Positions 4,688 to 32,770 of a DNA stretch of 64,000 nt are shown here, one piece after another. Source of the DNA: a virus (lineage: Duplodnaviria > Caudoviricetes); the IMG/VR virus record IMGVR_UViG_3300021255_004000, positions 128,001 through 192,000 of that record. The stretch is one strand, 5' to 3'. The stretch's first letter is position 1; every line of letters starts with the position of its first letter. Made by a program: the position numbers and the translations under genes. The notes under the pieces were generated by a model. The model was not told the DNA's origin. It saw nothing but the letters and a program-made list of their open reading frames with translations, and searched no databases.

Positions 4688-5365
4688 ATGGGAAGAACTA
4701 TCGTTGAAAAAGAAGAGACGATAAATAAACAAGAAGCTCCTCAAACTTTGTATCAACCTGCAGATGATGGCATTGGCTCAGCAGAAGCAGATATAAATGA
4801 TACAAGTATTTCAGGAGTAATGAACTTCTATGAAGATCAGCTTATTAAGTTTGTTTCTGAACAAGTTACAAAAATGGACCAAAAGCTGCTCTTTGATGGA
4901 AACTCGTCTCCTCCGTTACCTTTAATTGATAAAGCTATTATGCAGCACGAGCATGTCACAATGGCATTGACTGCTCTTTATGAACAAGCTCGATGGGCTT
5001 GGAACACTGCAAAAGAAGCTTATGCTGAATGGCACGCAAAAAAGTTTCTTGAAATCCGTATGGAGGTAAATAAGAAAGAAGATGCTCGAGCAAAGTGGTT
5101 TAAGGACACTGAAATCGAGTATATGATTATTGCAAAATATACAAAAGAAGTTGCAGACTTCAAAGCAAGAATTCAACTTGCTGATGCAAAAGTTTCATTG
5201 TTCAGAAGATTGATTGACAGTTGGAACCAATATGCATTCCAGCTTGGTCAGTTGTCAAGAAACGGTATTGCAGAAAAGAACTCTTCTGATATGACTGACA
5301 AGTACGAAGATCAGGACCCAGTTGATACTGCAACACTTGCACTTGCTGCAATGGGACAACAATAA
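4688..5365 (+). CDS. UvsY-like recombination mediator (helical)
   Basis: Helical pattern ...TEIEYMI...VSLFRRLIDSWNQYAFQL resembles T4 UvsY C-terminus. Confidence 0.4.
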   Translation: MGRTIVEKEETINKQEAPQTLYQPADDGIGSAEADINDTSISGVMNFYEDQLIKFVSEQVTKMDQKLLFDGNSSPPLPLIDKAIMQHEHVTMALTALYEQARWAWNTAKEAYAEWHAKKFLEIRMEVNKKEDARAKWFKDTEIEYMIIAKYTKEVADFKARIQLADAKVSLFRRLIDSWNQYAFQLGQLSRNGIAEKNSSDMTDKYEDQDPVDTATLALAAMGQQ

Positions 5366-5399
5366 AGCCTACATTTCTGTAAAATATACTAAATGGATA

Positions 5400-5503
5400 A
5401 CAGTACCAAACGCGGGCTTCGGCTCGGTTTGGCCTTCATTTTGCAACTATGCCGCGAAAGCGGATAGAATATATTTTATAGGAGATCGCACTATGCGTGG
5501 ATC
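5400..5503 (+). promoter_or_regulatory. Structured 5' leader of hsp20 (candidate RNA thermometer)
   Basis: Hairpins 5406-5432 (UUCG loop) and 5447-5467 (GAAA loop); AUG inside CGCA-CTA-TGCG. Confidence 0.5.
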
Positions 5504-6101
5504 ATTGGATTTTGACGTCCCTGGTTTGGGAGTCTTTGGTTCTCCACTCTTTGGAGAAAAGATTTTGAATGCCTTGATGACAGGTGAGTGTCCTGAAGGA
5601 ACTCGTACTTATCAGAAAGACATAATTGATGCTGATGGCAACAAGGTTGGAAAAACTATTGTTCGCACATACTCATCAGGCCGTTCTACTGCGCCATCAA
5701 GTCTTGTTGGCAGCAATTACCCTCCTTGTAACATTTACACTGATGAAAACAAAAGAAAGGTTTATGAGTTTGCAATCGCAGGCTATGATCCTAAAAATGT
5801 TTCATTTGCTGTAGATGAAAACAATCCATCTTACATCAATCTTATTCTCAAGTCAGGCTTAACTGAGGTTAAGGAATCTGAAAAAGAAGATGACGATGAG
5901 GACAAGAAAGAAGAGCCAAAAGTTGAAAAGGCGATCATTTACGACTATCAGAAGTTTGTTGTAAAAGATCACACTTGTCCATTCTATGTCGACCGTGACC
6001 GTTACGACATTGAACAGTCAACTGTTGAGTTCAAGAATGGTACTGTAAAGATTTCTTTTGAACCGAAGAAAGTTGCTTTCAACCCTAAAGTTGTAAACTA
6101 A
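5493..6101 (+). CDS. Small heat-shock protein, Hsp20/IbpA-like (start reassigned to 5493)
   Basis: SNYPPCNI, FAIAGY, FKNGTVKI alpha-crystallin motifs; SD AGGAG. Confidence 0.8.
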   Translation: MRGSLDFDVPGLGVFGSPLFGEKILNALMTGECPEGTRTYQKDIIDADGNKVGKTIVRTYSSGRSTAPSSLVGSNYPPCNIYTDENKRKVYEFAIAGYDPKNVSFAVDENNPSYINLILKSGLTEVKESEKEDDDEDKKEEPKVEKAIIYDYQKFVVKDHTCPFYVDRDRYDIEQSTVEFKNGTVKISFEPKKVAFNPKVVN

Positions 6102-6132
6102 AGTAATTTTTGGAGGTTTATTGGAGGTCAAA

Positions 6133-6157
6133 AAAGGCGAGCAGGAAGCTCGCCTTT
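6133..6157. terminator. Bidirectional intrinsic terminator
   Basis: AAAGGCGAGC-AGGAA-GCTCGCCTTT between convergent genes. Confidence 0.85.
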
Positions 6158-6163
6158 ATAGAT

Positions 6164-6784
6164 TTATTTTTGTTGCTGTTGTAAATATGCAATAAGATCT
6201 TGTGGTGAACAGTTTTTAAGTATTCTTGTATTAAGCAAGTTTTGAATTGCTGGTGTTACTTTGCTTACATCTCCCTGAGGCTGTTCAGGCTGTGGCTGTT
6301 GCGGCTGAGGCTGAGGCTGCTGTTGTGAACCATCTGCAGCAGGAGCAGTTTCAGCATTTTCTGGCTGACCTTCTGCATTTGTTGCTGGTGCAGCTTCACT
6401 TTGATTTGTTTGTGCAGATTCAGAATTATTCTGTTGAGTTTCTTCGGGTTTTAACATTGGAGCATTTTTTAATGCAAGAATGTTTTCTTTAGAAGTTTTC
6501 AACAATCCTAAAAGATTTCCGTTTCCTGCAATCTTATCAAGTATTGAAGGATCTGCTTTTAACTTTGCTAAAACATCAGCAGGTTTTAATGTTTCACCTT
6601 GTTTAAGTCCCAAAACTTCTGCAGCTAAATTGTTTGCTGCATTAGAATTTGCCTGAGCTTTGTTTGCATCTTTATGTGCTTGTGCAGAAGCTTTGTTAGC
6701 AGCATCTGCATTTTCAGCAGCTTGCTGAACAGGATCTTTTGGAGCATTTTCAAATAACGCTTTCTCAAATGAAGTATCAATCAT
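6164..6784 (-). CDS. Low-complexity Ala/Gln/Pro protein, probable head internal protein
   Basis: Downstream of protease; N-terminal LFEN; QPQP tract. Confidence 0.5.
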   Translation of the reverse strand: MIDTSFEKALFENAPKDPVQQAAENADAANKASAQAHKDANKAQANSNAANNLAAEVLGLKQGETLKPADVLAKLKADPSILDKIAGNGNLLGLLKTSKENILALKNAPMLKPEETQQNNSESAQTNQSEAAPATNAEGQPENAETAPAADGSQQQPQPQPQQPQPEQPQGDVSKVTPAIQNLLNTRILKNCSPQDLIAYLQQQQK

Positions 6785-14170: not shown

Positions 14171-15148
14171 ATGTTGGATCTTCCAGTGTGGCTTATAGCT
14201 TGCGTGCTTGGCGTAGGATGCATTATTATAACTATCTTACTTTACATTCTTATTAAGACAAATGGAAAGTCAGATGTGTATATCAACAAAAATGGTGTTG
14301 TTGTAAAAGCAGCATCACCAAAAAACATTACAACCAAACAGTTTATCAACTTTATGAAAGAGATAATTTCATATGTTGAAGACTCAAAAGAAAATTATGT
14401 AGATGATGTAATTGGAATTAAAAATCTTTACTTCAAACAGTCAAAAGACTTTGCAAAGTCAAGAATTATTGAAGTTCAGAATGCTATCATTGAAGAATAT
14501 AAAATGGAATATATGAAGAAGTATTCAGGCCGTCTCCACCCGTCATTGACAAAAGATGGAAATGGAAAAGAATTGATTATTGACGCAACAGTACTTCTTC
14601 CTACTGCTAATCAACTTGATGATGATAAGACTGAAGAAGGAGAAACTAAACCAGTTTCTCCTTGCCATCGTCTTTGTGCAAGTGGTTGCAATTCAGGATT
14701 GTCTTTCTTTGAGTCGCACTTGCAGAAAGATTTCAAACCCATCTTGGAGGAAGTATTTAGAATCATCGAAGAAAACCACTTGGTAAACCGTCTTGACCGT
14801 GAATATGAGGAAGAGATTGTTACAAAGGCTGGTCAGTTGTCTTCTTACTTAAAGAATTGTGTAATTTCTTATCCTGTACCTATTGATAACGAAATTGCTA
14901 AAGAGGTTATTTATCGAAAAACACCAAATGTTCAAGATGCTATCGAAGATTCATTAAGAAGATCAAGAACATTATCAAAAGAAAAACGCGAACATATCCA
15001 AGCAGAAAAAGAAAAGTATTACAGAAAAAGAGATACAAAAATCTCTCAAATTGTAAACATTTTGAATGACAGCGATCTTGAAGCAATTTTACGCCGTACA
15101 GACCGCCGCATTACTGATGGCAGTAATGATATGTTACCATTAAGTTAA
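14171..15148 (+). CDS. Single N-terminal TM helical protein
   Basis: TM at residues ~5-28; ACTAAAT and SD upstream. Confidence 0.65.
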   Translation: MLDLPVWLIACVLGVGCIIITILLYILIKTNGKSDVYINKNGVVVKAASPKNITTKQFINFMKEIISYVEDSKENYVDDVIGIKNLYFKQSKDFAKSRIIEVQNAIIEEYKMEYMKKYSGRLHPSLTKDGNGKELIIDATVLLPTANQLDDDKTEEGETKPVSPCHRLCASGCNSGLSFFESHLQKDFKPILEEVFRIIEENHLVNRLDREYEEEIVTKAGQLSSYLKNCVISYPVPIDNEIAKEVIYRKTPNVQDAIEDSLRRSRTLSKEKREHIQAEKEKYYRKRDTKISQIVNILNDSDLEAILRRTDRRITDGSNDMLPLS

Positions 15149-26050: not shown

Positions 26051-26863
26051 TTAATCATCAAAGTCGGAATATCTCATCTTCATACAACTTTTCAACAACT
26101 GAAAGATTTGGTCCTGAATCCAATCTTCAGGATATGTAATTCCAATTTCTTTCCAATACTGATGCGTGTCAAATAAGTTTTCATTTGAAAGTTGATTATA
26201 TGCATCACAAAGATTGTTGCGGATAATACCAATGATATGTGTTGTGCGGTCTTTTACATAATGCTGAACATCTTCTTTACATTTACCAATATTGTTACTT
26301 ACAAGCATTTGGTACAATTCAATTTGAAGGTCACGAAGTAATGAATCAACTGCGCTTTCAACAAGATTAGTAAATACACGAGTTTTCGGATTGTTCTTGT
26401 ATGTCTTTACTTCTTCAATAAGATAATATGAATCACCGCCAGCAACATCAGAAAGATTTTCTCTTCCTGTTACTTTGCGAGATTCTTTCTCGATTCCTAA
26501 TGAATCTACAATAGCGTCTTCAAGAATTGAATAAATTAAACGGTTGAAAATTGGACGAAGAGACTGTAAGAATGGAGCAACCAATGAAAATTGTCTTGAT
26601 ATAACATAACGAGTTCTTTCTTCAACTTGACGCTTTGCTTCCATCAATTCTTTTGCATTAACGCCTGTATCACCTTTTACAGATTCTGCTTTTGAAAAGT
26701 CAACTTGAAAGTCACCAAGCTTCAAACTTTTCGCATTTTTGAAAAGCAAATATCCTAATGAAAGAATTAAACAAATTATGCTTATTATTAAAATCACAAA
26801 AAGAACAGGATGCGCACTGAACAAAGTCAGTAATCCTGTTCCTGAAATTACCTCTGCGTCCAT
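26051..26863 (-). CDS. Single N-terminal TM helical protein (possible paralog of 14171..15148)
   Basis: TM at residues ~20-41; ACTAATT 11 nt before ATG. Confidence 0.65.
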   Translation of the reverse strand: MDAEVISGTGLLTLFSAHPVLFVILIISIICLILSLGYLLFKNAKSLKLGDFQVDFSKAESVKGDTGVNAKELMEAKRQVEERTRYVISRQFSLVAPFLQSLRPIFNRLIYSILEDAIVDSLGIEKESRKVTGRENLSDVAGGDSYYLIEEVKTYKNNPKTRVFTNLVESAVDSLLRDLQIELYQMLVSNNIGKCKEDVQHYVKDRTTHIIGIIRNNLCDAYNQLSNENLFDTHQYWKEIGITYPEDWIQDQIFQLLKSCMKMRYSDFDD

Positions 26864-27740: not shown

Positions 27741-27769
27741 AATATAAAAGACACTCGTGCAAAGTTCAA
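27741..27769 (-). promoter_or_regulatory. Class I promoter
   Basis: TTGAAC-17-TATATT. Confidence 0.85.
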
Positions 27770-27786
27770 TTTTTGCACTAAATAAT

Positions 27787-28260
27787 ATGAAAAAGTATCG
27801 AAAAAAAATCATCAGTCCTGATGAAATTGACGAAATGATTGATGAACAAGTAGATGACGCCTGCCGTTTGAAACATCTTGAGCCTGTGTTGACTTGTAGC
27901 GGAAAAATGTATCATCAGCAAGGCCATAAAGGTATGGCACACGGAATGAAGTTTGACTCTTATTGGGAGTTTGCATATTATCTTTATCAAACAGAAAAAG
28001 AAGGAAAAATCGTTGAGAGAAACACTTCTGAAAGTATCGAATACATTGATGACACTGGAAAGATTGCGAAGTTTTACCCAGACTTTATTGTATCTGGGCA
28101 ATATGTTGAAGTCAAAGGATGGCTAAGACCGAAAGACAGATGCAAAATGGACCAATGTTGGCAAGTGCAATTTGTCTTCGGCGATGATATTAAGCCAATG
28201 ATTGCTTGGTTAAATCAGCATCACAAGAATTGGAGAGATGAGTACATTCAGACATTGTAA
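27787..28260 (+). CDS. PD-(D/E)xK endonuclease (TnsA-N / T4 gp4-like)
   Basis: FDSYWE ... FYPDF ... VEVKG; ACTAAAT 10 nt before ATG 27787. Confidence 0.75.
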   Translation: MKKYRKKIISPDEIDEMIDEQVDDACRLKHLEPVLTCSGKMYHQQGHKGMAHGMKFDSYWEFAYYLYQTEKEGKIVERNTSESIEYIDDTGKIAKFYPDFIVSGQYVEVKGWLRPKDRCKMDQCWQVQFVFGDDIKPMIAWLNQHHKNWRDEYIQTL

Positions 28261-29396: not shown

Positions 29397-29451
29397 ATTT
29401 TGATACCTCGCAATATCTATATTAACTACTAATTGCTAATAAGAGGCAGAA

Positions 29452-30246
29452 ATGTGGAAATTAAGATCGATAAGAAGTTTTTTATTAAGCTTGGTTGTCT
29501 TGTTGTGTTTGGTGTCACCTGTTTTCTCGCAGGATGCTTATTCTTCAGATCTAGAGGAATTTCAGGAACTGGCGAACAGCTTGTCTCAGGAATCGTACTC
29601 GAACGAGATACAGCAGATAAGTTATTGGACGAACTTGGTATTGCAAGACCTGCAGGACAATCCGCAGTTGACGCTGGATACGCAGTCCTTAGAGGAGTAC
29701 AAGAACTTGGCAAGTCAAATGACGCAGCCCGCCTTTGTATCAGCGAAATTGAGCGAGAAGTTGATCTTACTCAACAAAACGCAGAAATTATCAAACAGTC
29801 TTTTGATGGAGTATCTGACGCAATCGACTATGGCTGGAGAATCGCAGAAGAACAAGCTGCAGCATATGAACGAATTGTTGAAACATTACAGCAATTTAAT
29901 AACGATACTGGAGAAGATGACGAAAAGTCAACTGCAGGACCTCGGGATAGTCAATGAACAGCTTGGCTTAATGCAACAAGAAACAGAAAGCTTGAAGATA
30001 CAAATTGAAGCAAACTTAAGATTAGCTACAAAAATGGCTGAAGAGATTGCGAAGTATCAAAATATGAAAAAGAGACTTCGTGCAACAGCTTATGCGGAAT
30101 TGGGAATTGGAATCCCTTGTCTTGTTATTGGATGTTTGCCAATTTGGACTCCTGAACAACAAAACATTAAAAACTTGTTCTTAGGAATTGGCGGAACTGC
30201 AACAGCTGCAGGTGGCTTTACATTTGCATTTACAATTACTTTTTAG
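29452..30246 (+). CDS. Exported coiled-coil protein with C-terminal membrane anchor (spanin-like component 1)
   Basis: Signal peptide ending SPVFS|Q, long heptad region, hydrophobic C-terminus ending FTFAFTITF. Confidence 0.65.
   Translation: MWKLRSIRSFLLSLVVLLCLVSPVFSQDAYSSDLEEFQELANSLSQESYSNEIQQISYWTNLVLQDLQDNPQLTLDTQSLEEYKNLASQMTQPAFVSAKLSEKLILLNKTQKLSNSLLMEYLTQSTMAGESQKNKLQHMNELLKHYSNLITILEKMTKSQLQDLGIVNEQLGLMQQETESLKIQIEANLRLATKMAEEIAKYQNMKKRLRATAYAELGIGIPCLVIGCLPIWTPEQQNIKNLFLGIGGTATAAGGFTFAFTITF
29454..29957 (+). CDS. Embedded membrane/lipoprotein coiled-coil protein (spanin-like component 2)
   Basis: GTG 29454 in alternate frame; KK + hydrophobic stretch + LAGC; helical acidic body; no stop for ~500 nt. 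Confidence 0.55.
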   Translation: MEIKIDKKFFIKLGCLVVFGVTCFLAGCLFFRSRGISGTGEQLVSGIVLERDTADKLLDELGIARPAGQSAVDAGYAVLRGVQELGKSNDAARLCISEIEREVDLTQQNAEIIKQSFDGVSDAIDYGWRIAEEQAAAYERIVETLQQFNNDTGEDDEKSTAGPRDSQ

Positions 30247-30254
30247 GAGATAAA

Positions 30255-30890
30255 ATGACAAGTAAAGAATTGTGGTTAAAGCGCATTAGAAACTGGGCAG
30301 GTTTCCTTGGAATGATCTTGCCTTGGATTTCTTTAATCGGCGCTGTTATCGTTAGCATTGCAACAGGCGTACCTGCTGCATTTTGGTCAACACTTTCAAT
30401 TTCAGCAACATATTACATATGTCCTGCTTTGACAGGTATTCTTACTGCTGCTTCGATTGTTCTTATGTGTTATGATGGTTATGACTGGCGTGATAATCTT
30501 ATTACAACAATCAGTGGTATATTTGGAATTATGATTGTTCTTTTTCCTTGTGCTTGTACAGTTGCAGGAGCAACAGTAGGATTCTTCCAACTTCCTGTAG
30601 CAATTTCAAACATCATACATTGTATATCTGCTTGTGCATTCTTTATATTGCTCTCAATTAACAGTTTGTTCTTATTTACACTTGGTGAAACAAATCCTAC
30701 AAAACAGAAAAAGATAAGAAACATTGTTTATCGAGTTTGTGGAATTGGAATGCTTTGTGCTTTAACATTGATGGTTATTCCTGTAACTTTCTTTGCAAAA
30801 ACATTTATAGTTGAAGCCATTGCGTTGACATTCTTCGGTATAAGTTGGTTGGTCAAAGGCCAAGCATTAGGTATATTAAAAGACAAATAA
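30255..30890 (+). CDS. Multi-pass membrane protein (DUF998-like)
   Basis: About 6 TM segments; SISATYY, H...A..FF, E...L..FG.SWLVKG. Confidence 0.65.
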   Translation: MTSKELWLKRIRNWAGFLGMILPWISLIGAVIVSIATGVPAAFWSTLSISATYYICPALTGILTAASIVLMCYDGYDWRDNLITTISGIFGIMIVLFPCACTVAGATVGFFQLPVAISNIIHCISACAFFILLSINSLFLFTLGETNPTKQKKIRNIVYRVCGIGMLCALTLMVIPVTFFAKTFIVEAIALTFFGISWLVKGQALGILKDK

Positions 30891-30896
30891 AATAAA

Positions 30897-30917
30897 AGGC
30901 GAGCTTTTTGCTCGCCT
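30897..30917. terminator. Bidirectional intrinsic terminator
   Basis: AGGCGAGC-TTTTT-GCTCGCCT between convergent genes. Confidence 0.85.
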
Positions 30918-30921
30918 ATTT

Positions 30922-32565
30922 TTATAAGCAGTTACTTAAAACATCAAGTTGTAATGGTTTACCCCAAACATATCCTTGAACATAATCACAACCTAAGAAA
31001 GCCAAAGTTGAAAGTTGAGCTTGATCTTCAACACCTTCAGCAATAACTTTACATCCCATAAGATGCCCAAGTTTAATGATTATATCAACGAATGATCTGT
31101 CACTTTCTTTAGTAAGCATTTTATCAACAAATGACTTATCGATCTTTAACATATCAACAGGCATTTTTGACAAATAGTTTAATGAAGAGTAACCTGTTCC
31201 AAAGTCGTCCAAAGCTGTTTTGACGCCAAGAACTTTTAATCTTTGAACAACCTGTGCAGCTTCTTCAATGTATCTTATATATGAACTTTCAGTTATTTCA
31301 ATCTTTAAGTTCTTTGGCGGGAAACCAGATTCTGAAAGAGAATCAATGACATTCTCAACAAAGCCTTTATTAGTAATGTGTTTTCCAGAAACATTTATTG
31401 ATACTTCAATGTCAGGATGTAAAGTAACGAAATCTTTCATTTGTTTCATTACATTATGCATTACCCACATATCAATTTCATATATAAGTCCGCTCTTTTC
31501 AGCAACCTGAATAAATTGCTGTGTGTTGATGTACTCGCCTTTCTTATTCTTTAATCTTATCAAAGACTCAAAACCTATAAGCTTGTGTGAATTGATTTCA
31601 TATTGTGGCTGATACAACATTTCAAAAGTATTATTCTTGATAGCGTTTTTCAAATCTTTTTCAGTTAAATAACGCTTCATTATTTCTTGGTACATATCTT
31701 GGTCAAAGAAATAGTAATCGTTCTTGCCGCCAAGTTTTGCTTTATACATTGCAGTATCCGCATAAGAAAGCAACTGTTGTAAGTCTGCAGTATCTTCATC
31801 ATATAATGCCAAACCTGCAGAAGCAGAAACATAATTTGCAAACTTTGACTGAAGTGTTGTGATTGAATGAAGAACATTAGTTACAAACTCTCTTGTTGTT
31901 TCTTTATCTTTTGTTTCATAAATGATTGCGAACTCATCTCCGCCTAAACGACAAACTGTAAATGGATATTTTGACGGAAGTTTGCTCCAAGTTGTAGCAA
32001 CCTCACAAAGTAATTCATCTCCTGCTTCGTGTCCTAAAGTATCATTAACTTGTTTGAAGTTGTCAAGGTCAAGGAACATAAGATAGAAATCTTTTCCCAT
32101 CTCGCTTTTCATTGCAAGCTCACGCAAAAGTCCGCGTCTGTTCAAACAACCTGTAAGTTGGTCTGTATATGCAGCTCTGTCAAGATCTTCTTCATCTTGT
32201 TTTAATCTTTTAATGTAACGCCACAATGTATAGACTAAACAACATCCCAATAATGAAAATGCCATTCCTGCACCGCAGTTGATAAATCCTTCGTGAATAA
32301 AATTGAGAATTGCAGATGCAAGCATAAAAGCATTGATTGGGAATACTATTTTGAAGACTTTTCCATTTGAAATGATCATTGCAAGAGAAAATGCGAATAT
32401 CTGAAAAGCCATCATACAACCGTTGATTGTAACGATTGCAGCTTTTGGAAGTGTGACGAGACAAGGAATGACTCCTAAGCCGTTAAGTAAAATTACTGTA
32501 AAAAATATAAGGCCCAGGAGAATCAAAATCTTTGAGATTGTGCGTCTTCTAGGTATGGTCTTCAT
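30922..32565 (-). CDS. Membrane-bound diguanylate cyclase / phosphodiesterase (GGDEF-EAL); start reassigned to 32565
   Basis: 4 TM; DLDNFK, RLGGDEF, ESLIR, EITES, DDFGTGYSS, KIDKSF, EGVE, QGY; ACTAATT 10 nt before ATG. Confidence 0.95.
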   Translation of the reverse strand: MKTIPRRRTISKILILLGLIFFTVILLNGLGVIPCLVTLPKAAIVTINGCMMAFQIFAFSLAMIISNGKVFKIVFPINAFMLASAILNFIHEGFINCGAGMAFSLLGCCLVYTLWRYIKRLKQDEEDLDRAAYTDQLTGCLNRRGLLRELAMKSEMGKDFYLMFLDLDNFKQVNDTLGHEAGDELLCEVATTWSKLPSKYPFTVCRLGGDEFAIIYETKDKETTREFVTNVLHSITTLQSKFANYVSASAGLALYDEDTADLQQLLSYADTAMYKAKLGGKNDYYFFDQDMYQEIMKRYLTEKDLKNAIKNNTFEMLYQPQYEINSHKLIGFESLIRLKNKKGEYINTQQFIQVAEKSGLIYEIDMWVMHNVMKQMKDFVTLHPDIEVSINVSGKHITNKGFVENVIDSLSESGFPPKNLKIEITESSYIRYIEEAAQVVQRLKVLGVKTALDDFGTGYSSLNYLSKMPVDMLKIDKSFVDKMLTKESDRSFVDIIIKLGHLMGCKVIAEGVEDQAQLSTLAFLGCDYVQGYVWGKPLQLDVLSNCL

Positions 32566-32575
32566 ACAAATTAGT

Positions 32576-32770
32576 TTATGGTTCCTCGGGATGTCGGATG
32601 TAATAATCAGTTTCAGTAAAGAGTTCGCCACAGTCACTTGGTCTCTCCTTATCATTGATTGTATATCCGAAACAACAACAAGGAACTCTTTCGTTGTTAG
32701 GACCTTTAGGCGGAGCAACACGATACTTGCAAAGGCGACATCCTGTAGGTTTAGATTCTTTCTTAGCCAT
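32576..32770 (-). CDS. Small Cys-rich protein
   Basis: CRLC...CCC...C. Confidence 0.55.
   Translation of the reverse strand: MAKKESKPTGCRLCKYRVAPPKGPNNERVPCCCFGYTINDKERPSDCGELFTETDYYIRHPEEP

Follow-up and report, generated by a model that had tools for sequence, protein, structure and literature searches.

How can two envelope proteins be read from the same nucleotides, starting from what looks like a single initiation site, and what might such a pair do for the phage that carries it? This question is raised by a locus in the window, as we call the whole 64,000-nucleotide stretch of DNA analysed here, which is part of an AT-rich jumbo phage of the gut. The sequence-only reading of this locus had described two coiled-coil genes launched from one ATGTG and had proposed that they form a spanin system of unusual architecture. 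Its positions for the upstream ACTAATT, the Shine-Dalgarno sequence and the two open reading frames proved exact when we re-examined the sequence. All lie on the plus strand: ACTAATT, a probable late-promoter element, at 29428-29434; the Shine-Dalgarno sequence AGAGG, common to both starts, at 29442-29446, 5 nt from the ATG and 7 nt from the GTG; and the ATGTG double start at 29452-29456. The ATG opens gene B (29452-30246, 264 amino acids) and the GTG opens gene A (29454-29957, 167 amino acids), which is read in the +2 frame and lies fully within B. A TTG at 29433 in the frame of A has no Shine-Dalgarno sequence, and sigma-70 promoter matches occur at chance level only. Downstream of B are a gene for a 211-amino-acid protein with about six transmembrane (TM) helices (30255-30890, plus strand), a variable neighbour in the locus comparison, and a GC-rich hairpin resembling a bidirectional terminator (30897-30917), with three such sites found against 0.9 expected in shuffled sequences.

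Two overlapping genes behind one Shine-Dalgarno sequence

We compared the DNA of 25 distinct loci with B, some of which are closely related. A is encoded at every one of them; at 19 the genes overlap, and at the other six A and then B follow one another as separate genes. Both frames are open in all 19 overlapped loci, where A is 22-89% identical to its counterpart in the window. When the synonymous codons of B were resampled according to phage codon usage, the frame of A acquired a mean of 13.2 stops over 165 codons and was open in none of 5,000 resamplings; in the converse resampling, with A held fixed, the frame of B was open in 0.14%. At conserved B residues, synonymous change amounts to 0.21 where the genes overlap and to 0.35 in the part that encodes B only, and separated B genes have 20-28 stops per 150 codons in the frame of A. 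Homologues with both frames open and suppressed synonymous variation were the check that the sequence-only reading had named for its claim, and both are found. These comparisons indicate that both frames are genes under selection and that the overlap is real and conserved. The notion that one frame is a gene and the other a shadow open reading frame, in line with gene callers that usually annotate only B, or A plus a 109-amino-acid tail of B, has next to no probability left and was rejected, given the resampling result and the un-overlapped loci, which keep both as separate genes and in which the unused frame fills with stops.

The double start is conserved as well. An (A/T)TGTG is present in 15 of the 19 overlapped loci, in each case behind a purine-rich Shine-Dalgarno sequence, and the second codon of B at these 15 loci is always TGG, TGC or TGT, so that the GTG of A is preserved. 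The remaining four loci, which form one clade, have two ATGs 11 nt apart in the same frames. In the clade in which two staggered ATGs replace ATGTG (L016-L019), a sequence resembling a tRNA T-arm with a CCA end lies about 60 nt upstream of the pair.

Predicted anatomy of the two products

Homologues of A number 726-824. The protein of the window has a basic, Lys-rich N terminus, one strongly hydrophobic TM helix (about residues 9-31) with a conserved Arg after it, and long periplasmic helices with Cys95, as predicted with AlphaFold2. A Lys-rich N terminus, a single TM helix and long helices are predicted for all 25 A proteins, and 23 of the 25 loci encode a periplasmic Cys in A, mostly at positions 92-98. 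Type II topology is what defines i-spanins (PMC6139136), and by its predicted topology A is a type II coiled-coil membrane protein; because of this membrane anchor, we consider A an i-spanin-like subunit. The LAGC that had been pointed out behind the hydrophobic stretch of the short product is there as described, but it is not conserved, and its reading as a lipobox was rejected: the Cys position is occupied by Arg in 188 of 206 A homologues and by Cys in 8, and A of L021 has no Cys in its hydrophobic stretch. The predominance of Arg indicates that the LAGC Cys is a local substitution and that A is not a lipoprotein.

Neither A nor B of the window matched any family in Pfam, PHROG or NCBIfam, and A was not found in GTDB genomes. 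Four divergent A homologues do match Rz-like profiles: the one from L040 matches PHROG 1152, an Rz-like spanin family, over nearly its full length (E 5e-5), and those from L009, L023 and L044 match PHROG 739 (Rz-like; E 0.002-0.016). Tape-measure families and generic coiled-coil families score like the Rz-like PHROGs against A homologues, and any TM helix with a coiled coil could match, so these hits give weak support for kinship with spanins and are suggestive only.

We found 132 homologues of B, which fall into 71 clusters at 50% identity. B has a predicted cleavable-type signal peptide (about residues 1-27) and no lipobox, in agreement with the earlier view that the long product is not a lipoprotein. 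Its body is modelled as helical, with one helix of about 130 residues at about 100-228 (AlphaFold2, mean pLDDT 80), and most B proteins have no Cys in their periplasmic part. The C terminus is a Gly-rich, weakly hydrophobic hairpin ending in Phe, and the C-terminal segments of B are far less hydrophobic than the TM helix of A (rough dG about +3 versus -0.9, on a simplified scale that serves only as a relative guide). Within the family the tail varies: the end is Phe-rich and alternating in some homologues, rich in Trp in others, and in others again a single, more hydrophobic, Gly-rich helix followed by Lys/Arg. The window does have the FTFAFTITF that had been likened to an outer-membrane beta-signal, and Phe or Trp is the last residue in 139 of 150 full-length B homologues; the alternation is found in the window's subgroup, but other subgroups differ from it or end in Lys/Arg, so the resemblance does not extend to the family. 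AlphaFold2 models the B tail as a helix and gives no barrel. The hydrophobic C-terminal end, as modelled, is a plausible outer-membrane anchor.

No family, fold or profile link connects B to any o-spanin. Fold searches of BFVD and the ESM Atlas returned only the A/B family's own clusters or generic helices, B had no match among GenBank phages, and its profile gave only spurious signal-peptide matches in 401 genomes from the family to which a Treponema genome belongs; with A unmatched in GTDB, no prophage lysis cassette was found. Complex prediction with the periplasmic parts of A and B gave a score of 0.26 against a mark of 0.32, which amounts to no verdict.

Separated alleles and the direction of change

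A and B are adjacent but separate in L022, L038, L040 and L043, and in L008 and L010/L011 a protein of 311-321 amino acids is encoded between them. A PD-(D/E)XK-like motif, a resemblance to DUF7487-labelled proteins and a weak one to an endonuclease encoded in the window at 27757-28260 mark it as a putative homing endonuclease. On both sides of the cassette, L008 and the window are 85-88% identical, and in L008 about 153 nt (window 29728-29880) are replaced by the cassette of about 1.47 kb (L008:4898-6367). L010 has the same replacement (about 4852-6384) in an L007-type allele, which places the cassette in two different allele backgrounds. Besides the endonuclease, the cassette brings in recoded versions of the end of A and of the first half of B, the latter with a new signal peptide; with these recoded halves, insertion into dual-coding DNA leaves both overlapping genes intact. 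The old frame of B is still open for 90-95 codons over the 5' part of A in L008 and L010, unlike in the older separated loci, where the unused frames are full of stops. Each gene at all six separated loci has a start and an export signal of its own, whether retained or acquired anew. The A/B locus is associated with an endonuclease for a second time in L044, where an HNH endonuclease gene (L044:1345-1764) directly precedes an overlapped pair.

In hhalign comparisons, the separated and overlapped forms of A proved homologous (97.8%), as did the N terminus of separated B and the portion of overlapped B that the same DNA encodes (92.6%, E 5e-7); controls, both reversed and cross, gave at most 1%. 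As each of the separate genes has its homologue in one of the two frames of a single stretch of DNA, the overlapped state probably came first and was later undone. We infer that the overlap was duplicated and that each copy lost one frame; the reverse path is disfavoured, since the motifs of B would have to re-evolve within the DNA of A. Overlapped and separated states are interspersed in the trees, with at least two to three forced changes, and long branches and recombination prevent the origins from being counted.

Kongari et al. described embedded, overlapped and separated spanin architectures, with the o-spanin inside or downstream, reported no family that mixes embedded with separated or other forms, and favoured evolution from separated to embedded genes (PMC6139136). 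The A/B family holds both embedded and separated members, and our comparisons point to change from embedded to separated, against that proposal. The nearest precedent for the split alleles is the endonuclease insertion seen between T5 and Shivani/phiR201 (PMC6139136), in which an endonuclease gene likewise lies between the partners (GIY-YIG there, a putative homing endonuclease in L008 and L010) and the partner further downstream carries a new export signal, as in L008 and L010. The T5 overlap is 70 bp (PMC6139136), compared with about 500 bp of dual-coding DNA in A/B, which is why the cassette here carries the C-terminal part of A and the N-terminal half of B, both recoded.

Function of the pair

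Three large relatives, G003 (386 kb, complete), G004 (301 kb, complete, with terminal repeats) and G005 (240 kb), carry one copy of B each. Flagellin genes are found in these jumbo phages (L041:10-543; G003 330945-331469; G004 100093-100620; G005 198416-198940). The flagellins of G003, G004 and G005 resemble one that has its best matches, at 65-72% identity, among Treponema flagellins, and in G003 and G005 the gene adjoins the holin-like gene. This phage-borne, Treponema-like subunit of a periplasmic flagellum suggests a host that is probably a diderm spirochaete, and probably Treponema. Lysis of a diderm host normally requires disruption of the outer membrane. A crude scan for lipoprotein-like genes found one in G004 and three in G003, of which one is likely to be spurious. 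No type II coiled-coil gene is linked to any of them, and a C-terminal TM helix is lacking in the three that are credible, so that no canonical two-component or unimolecular spanin is evident in G003 or G004.

ACTAA(A/T)T is found in the 50 nt before 10 ORF starts in the window (0.6 expected) and before 58 genes in G004 (2.7 expected), among them the tail sheath gene, a holin-like gene and the gene for a C39-like peptidase; it is the probable single-element late promoter of the phage group that carries A and B. The holin-like family (102-124 amino acids; G003, G004 and G005) matches PHROG 1299 weakly (E 0.013), and its gene is directly 3' of B in L041. The C39-like peptidase, whose match is below the Pfam cut-off, is encoded directly after B in L017-L019 and 1.5 kb upstream in G004; C39 domains are found in viral lytic enzymes (PMC6189367; bioRxiv 10.64898/2026.04.25.720813). 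A Lipase_3 gene, possibly for an accessory lysis lipase, is directly upstream of the pair at three loci (L014:3084-3824; L015:1118-1858; L036:4259-4999) and adjoins the holin-like gene in G004 (133101-133742). Lysis-type neighbours of the pair recur in separate lineages, though the neighbours vary.

The 211-amino-acid multi-TM protein, which had been suggested as a holin, did not survive the comparison. Its gene adjoins the pair in six loci only (the window, L001, L008, L013, L014 and L031) and is absent from the complete genome of G004, and is therefore not that of a core holin; it was also not found in G003, in a search without a positive control. The protein has no family match in Pfam, PHROG or NCBIfam, and it was rejected as a holin on account of its about six TM helices and its lack of conservation across the phage group. 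Two other genes of the window (26051-26863, minus strand; 14171-15148, plus strand), both preceded by ACTAA(A/T)T, encode proteins with a single predicted N-terminal TM helix and a large soluble domain, a topology that recalls T4 holin T; the protein of the first has no PHROG match. The minus strand at 30922-32721 encodes a membrane-anchored protein of GGDEF-EAL type, a homologue of which is labelled PF00990/PF00563, and L036 has a GGDEF gene too. Such products might manipulate c-di-GMP in the host.

On balance, we lean slightly towards a reading in which A and B together make up a non-canonical two-component spanin in jumbo myophages that infect Treponema, with B as a non-lipoprotein partner in the outer membrane. 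The pair would be transcribed late from ACTAATT, and ribosomes at the one Shine-Dalgarno sequence would start at either the ATG or the GTG, which would fix the ratio of A to B. A would be held by the inner membrane, perhaps as a dimer linked through the periplasmic Cys that it usually has; B would be exported through Sec and its signal removed. The weakly hydrophobic C-terminal hairpin of B would escape stop-transfer and settle in the outer membrane, replacing a lipid anchor, and the C-terminal helices of A would pair with the free N-terminal helices of B across the periplasm. Once a holin and an endolysin, for which the holin-like protein of about 100-125 amino acids and the C39-like peptidase are candidates, had removed the peptidoglycan, the A/B coils would zip and fuse the two membranes.

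Several observations are consistent with this proposal. A and B are retained together at 25 of 25 loci, including the six at which they are separated. The host appears to be diderm, yet two complete relatives have no recognisable spanin. The putative late-promoter motif is common to the pair and the tail sheath, holin-like and C39-like genes, and genes of lysis type adjoin the pair in separate lineages. A combines a predicted i-spanin topology and a periplasmic Cys with the weak Rz-like matches of its four homologues, and the C terminus of B is, by the rough estimate, much less hydrophobic than the TM helix of A and nearly always ends in Phe or Trp. Against the proposal stand the lack of any o-spanin link for B, the B homologues with a single hydrophobic helix followed by Lys/Arg, which would suit a type I protein of the inner membrane, the occurrence of the pair in no fixed lysis cassette with only weak holin-like and C39-like matches, and the late-promoter motif, which fits a virion protein too. 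What stands of the spanin system as first proposed is a pair that is spanin-like; the lipobox, a family-wide beta-signal and the 211-amino-acid holin have fallen away.

The form of these B homologues, together with the missing o-spanin homology and the missing fixed cassette, would also be expected if A and B formed a periplasmic coiled-coil complex based wholly in the inner membrane, where B would be a type I protein, and if this complex served lysis timing, a superinfection block or envelope remodelling. We consider such a complex unlikely: the commoner B hairpins are poor Sec stop-transfer segments and keep the terminal aromatic residue, A homologues match Rz-like profiles, and two complete phages of a diderm host would be left without a recognisable spanin. 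A late role in the virion or in ejection, such as that of a DNA conduit across the periplasm or of an assembly factor docked at the membrane, is improbable for the pair. The late-promoter motif is found on structural genes as well, and the long helices match tail and tape-measure profiles weakly, but the cleavable-type signal of B and the type II anchor of A imply that both enter the envelope during infection, and the pair moves among unrelated neighbourhoods, rarely among morphogenesis genes. Very improbable, finally, is a canonical spanin in reverse, with A as the lipoprotein. Spirochaete lipoboxes are looser than those of E. coli, and A of the window does have LAGC. Type I i-spanins, moreover, were raised as a possibility by Kongari et al. 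This reversal is nevertheless opposed by the Arg in most homologues and the Cys-free stretch of L021 described above, by the common Cys in A, which follows Phe and so is not part of a lipobox, and by the hydrophobic stretch of A, which is a full TM helix.

The non-canonical spanin that we favour resembles known systems in part. As in lambda Rz/Rz1 and T7, two envelope proteins are encoded in different frames of one DNA, and one partner, a type II protein of the inner membrane, has its coiled coils and a Cys in the periplasm (PMC6139136). Unlike in those phages, the nesting is inverted, with the i-spanin-like A inside the larger partner B, and both genes begin side by side at the 5' end. The known partner is a small unstructured lipoprotein, whereas B has 264 residues, is helical by prediction, has a cleavable-type signal and a C-terminal hydrophobic anchor, and lacks a sequence family link. 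A and B are linked at 25 of 25 loci, with A preceding B when they are separated, but without a lipoprotein partner they fall outside the Rz/Rz1 class: no lipobox is present in B, and the LAGC Cys of A is replaced by Arg in most homologues. T1 gp11 resembles B in being periplasmic with an N-terminal export signal and a C-terminal hydrophobic segment. It has an outer-membrane lipobox, an inner-membrane C-terminal TM helix and a beta-rich body, the features of a u-spanin, and works alone, whereas B has no lipobox, is all-helical and always occurs with A. Borrelia P13, a spirochaete outer-membrane protein with TM-like hydrophobic helices, is a host porin without a long periplasmic coil and offers an analogy to B in localisation only (PMC6879480); no homology between the two was detected.

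Kongari et al. could recognise no spanin in about 13% of the phage genomes that they surveyed, and they speculated that the place of the lipoprotein subunit could be taken by an outer-membrane protein (PMC6139136). The A/B family is a concrete candidate for the missing spanin class of such genomes, and pairs of this type would escape both lipobox-based searches and gene callers. The literature that we searched, with partial coverage, contains no description of the A/B family or of a non-lipoprotein o-spanin, and phage lysis has barely been studied in the spirochaete phylum. With a confidence that stops a little short of even, we propose a third spanin architecture, the first for spirochaete jumbo phages, in which the i-spanin gene lies within that of an outer-membrane partner and is initiated together with it, and in which this partner is no lipoprotein but is held by a hydrophobic hairpin at its C terminus. 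On this view the dual-coding state is ancestral, duplication has resolved the overlap, and an endonuclease cassette turns overlapped alleles into separate genes. Whatever its function, the locus is a natural experiment on overlapping genes, with about 500 nt of dual-coding DNA, two starts on one Shine-Dalgarno sequence, and overlapped, separated and endonuclease-split alleles side by side in one family.
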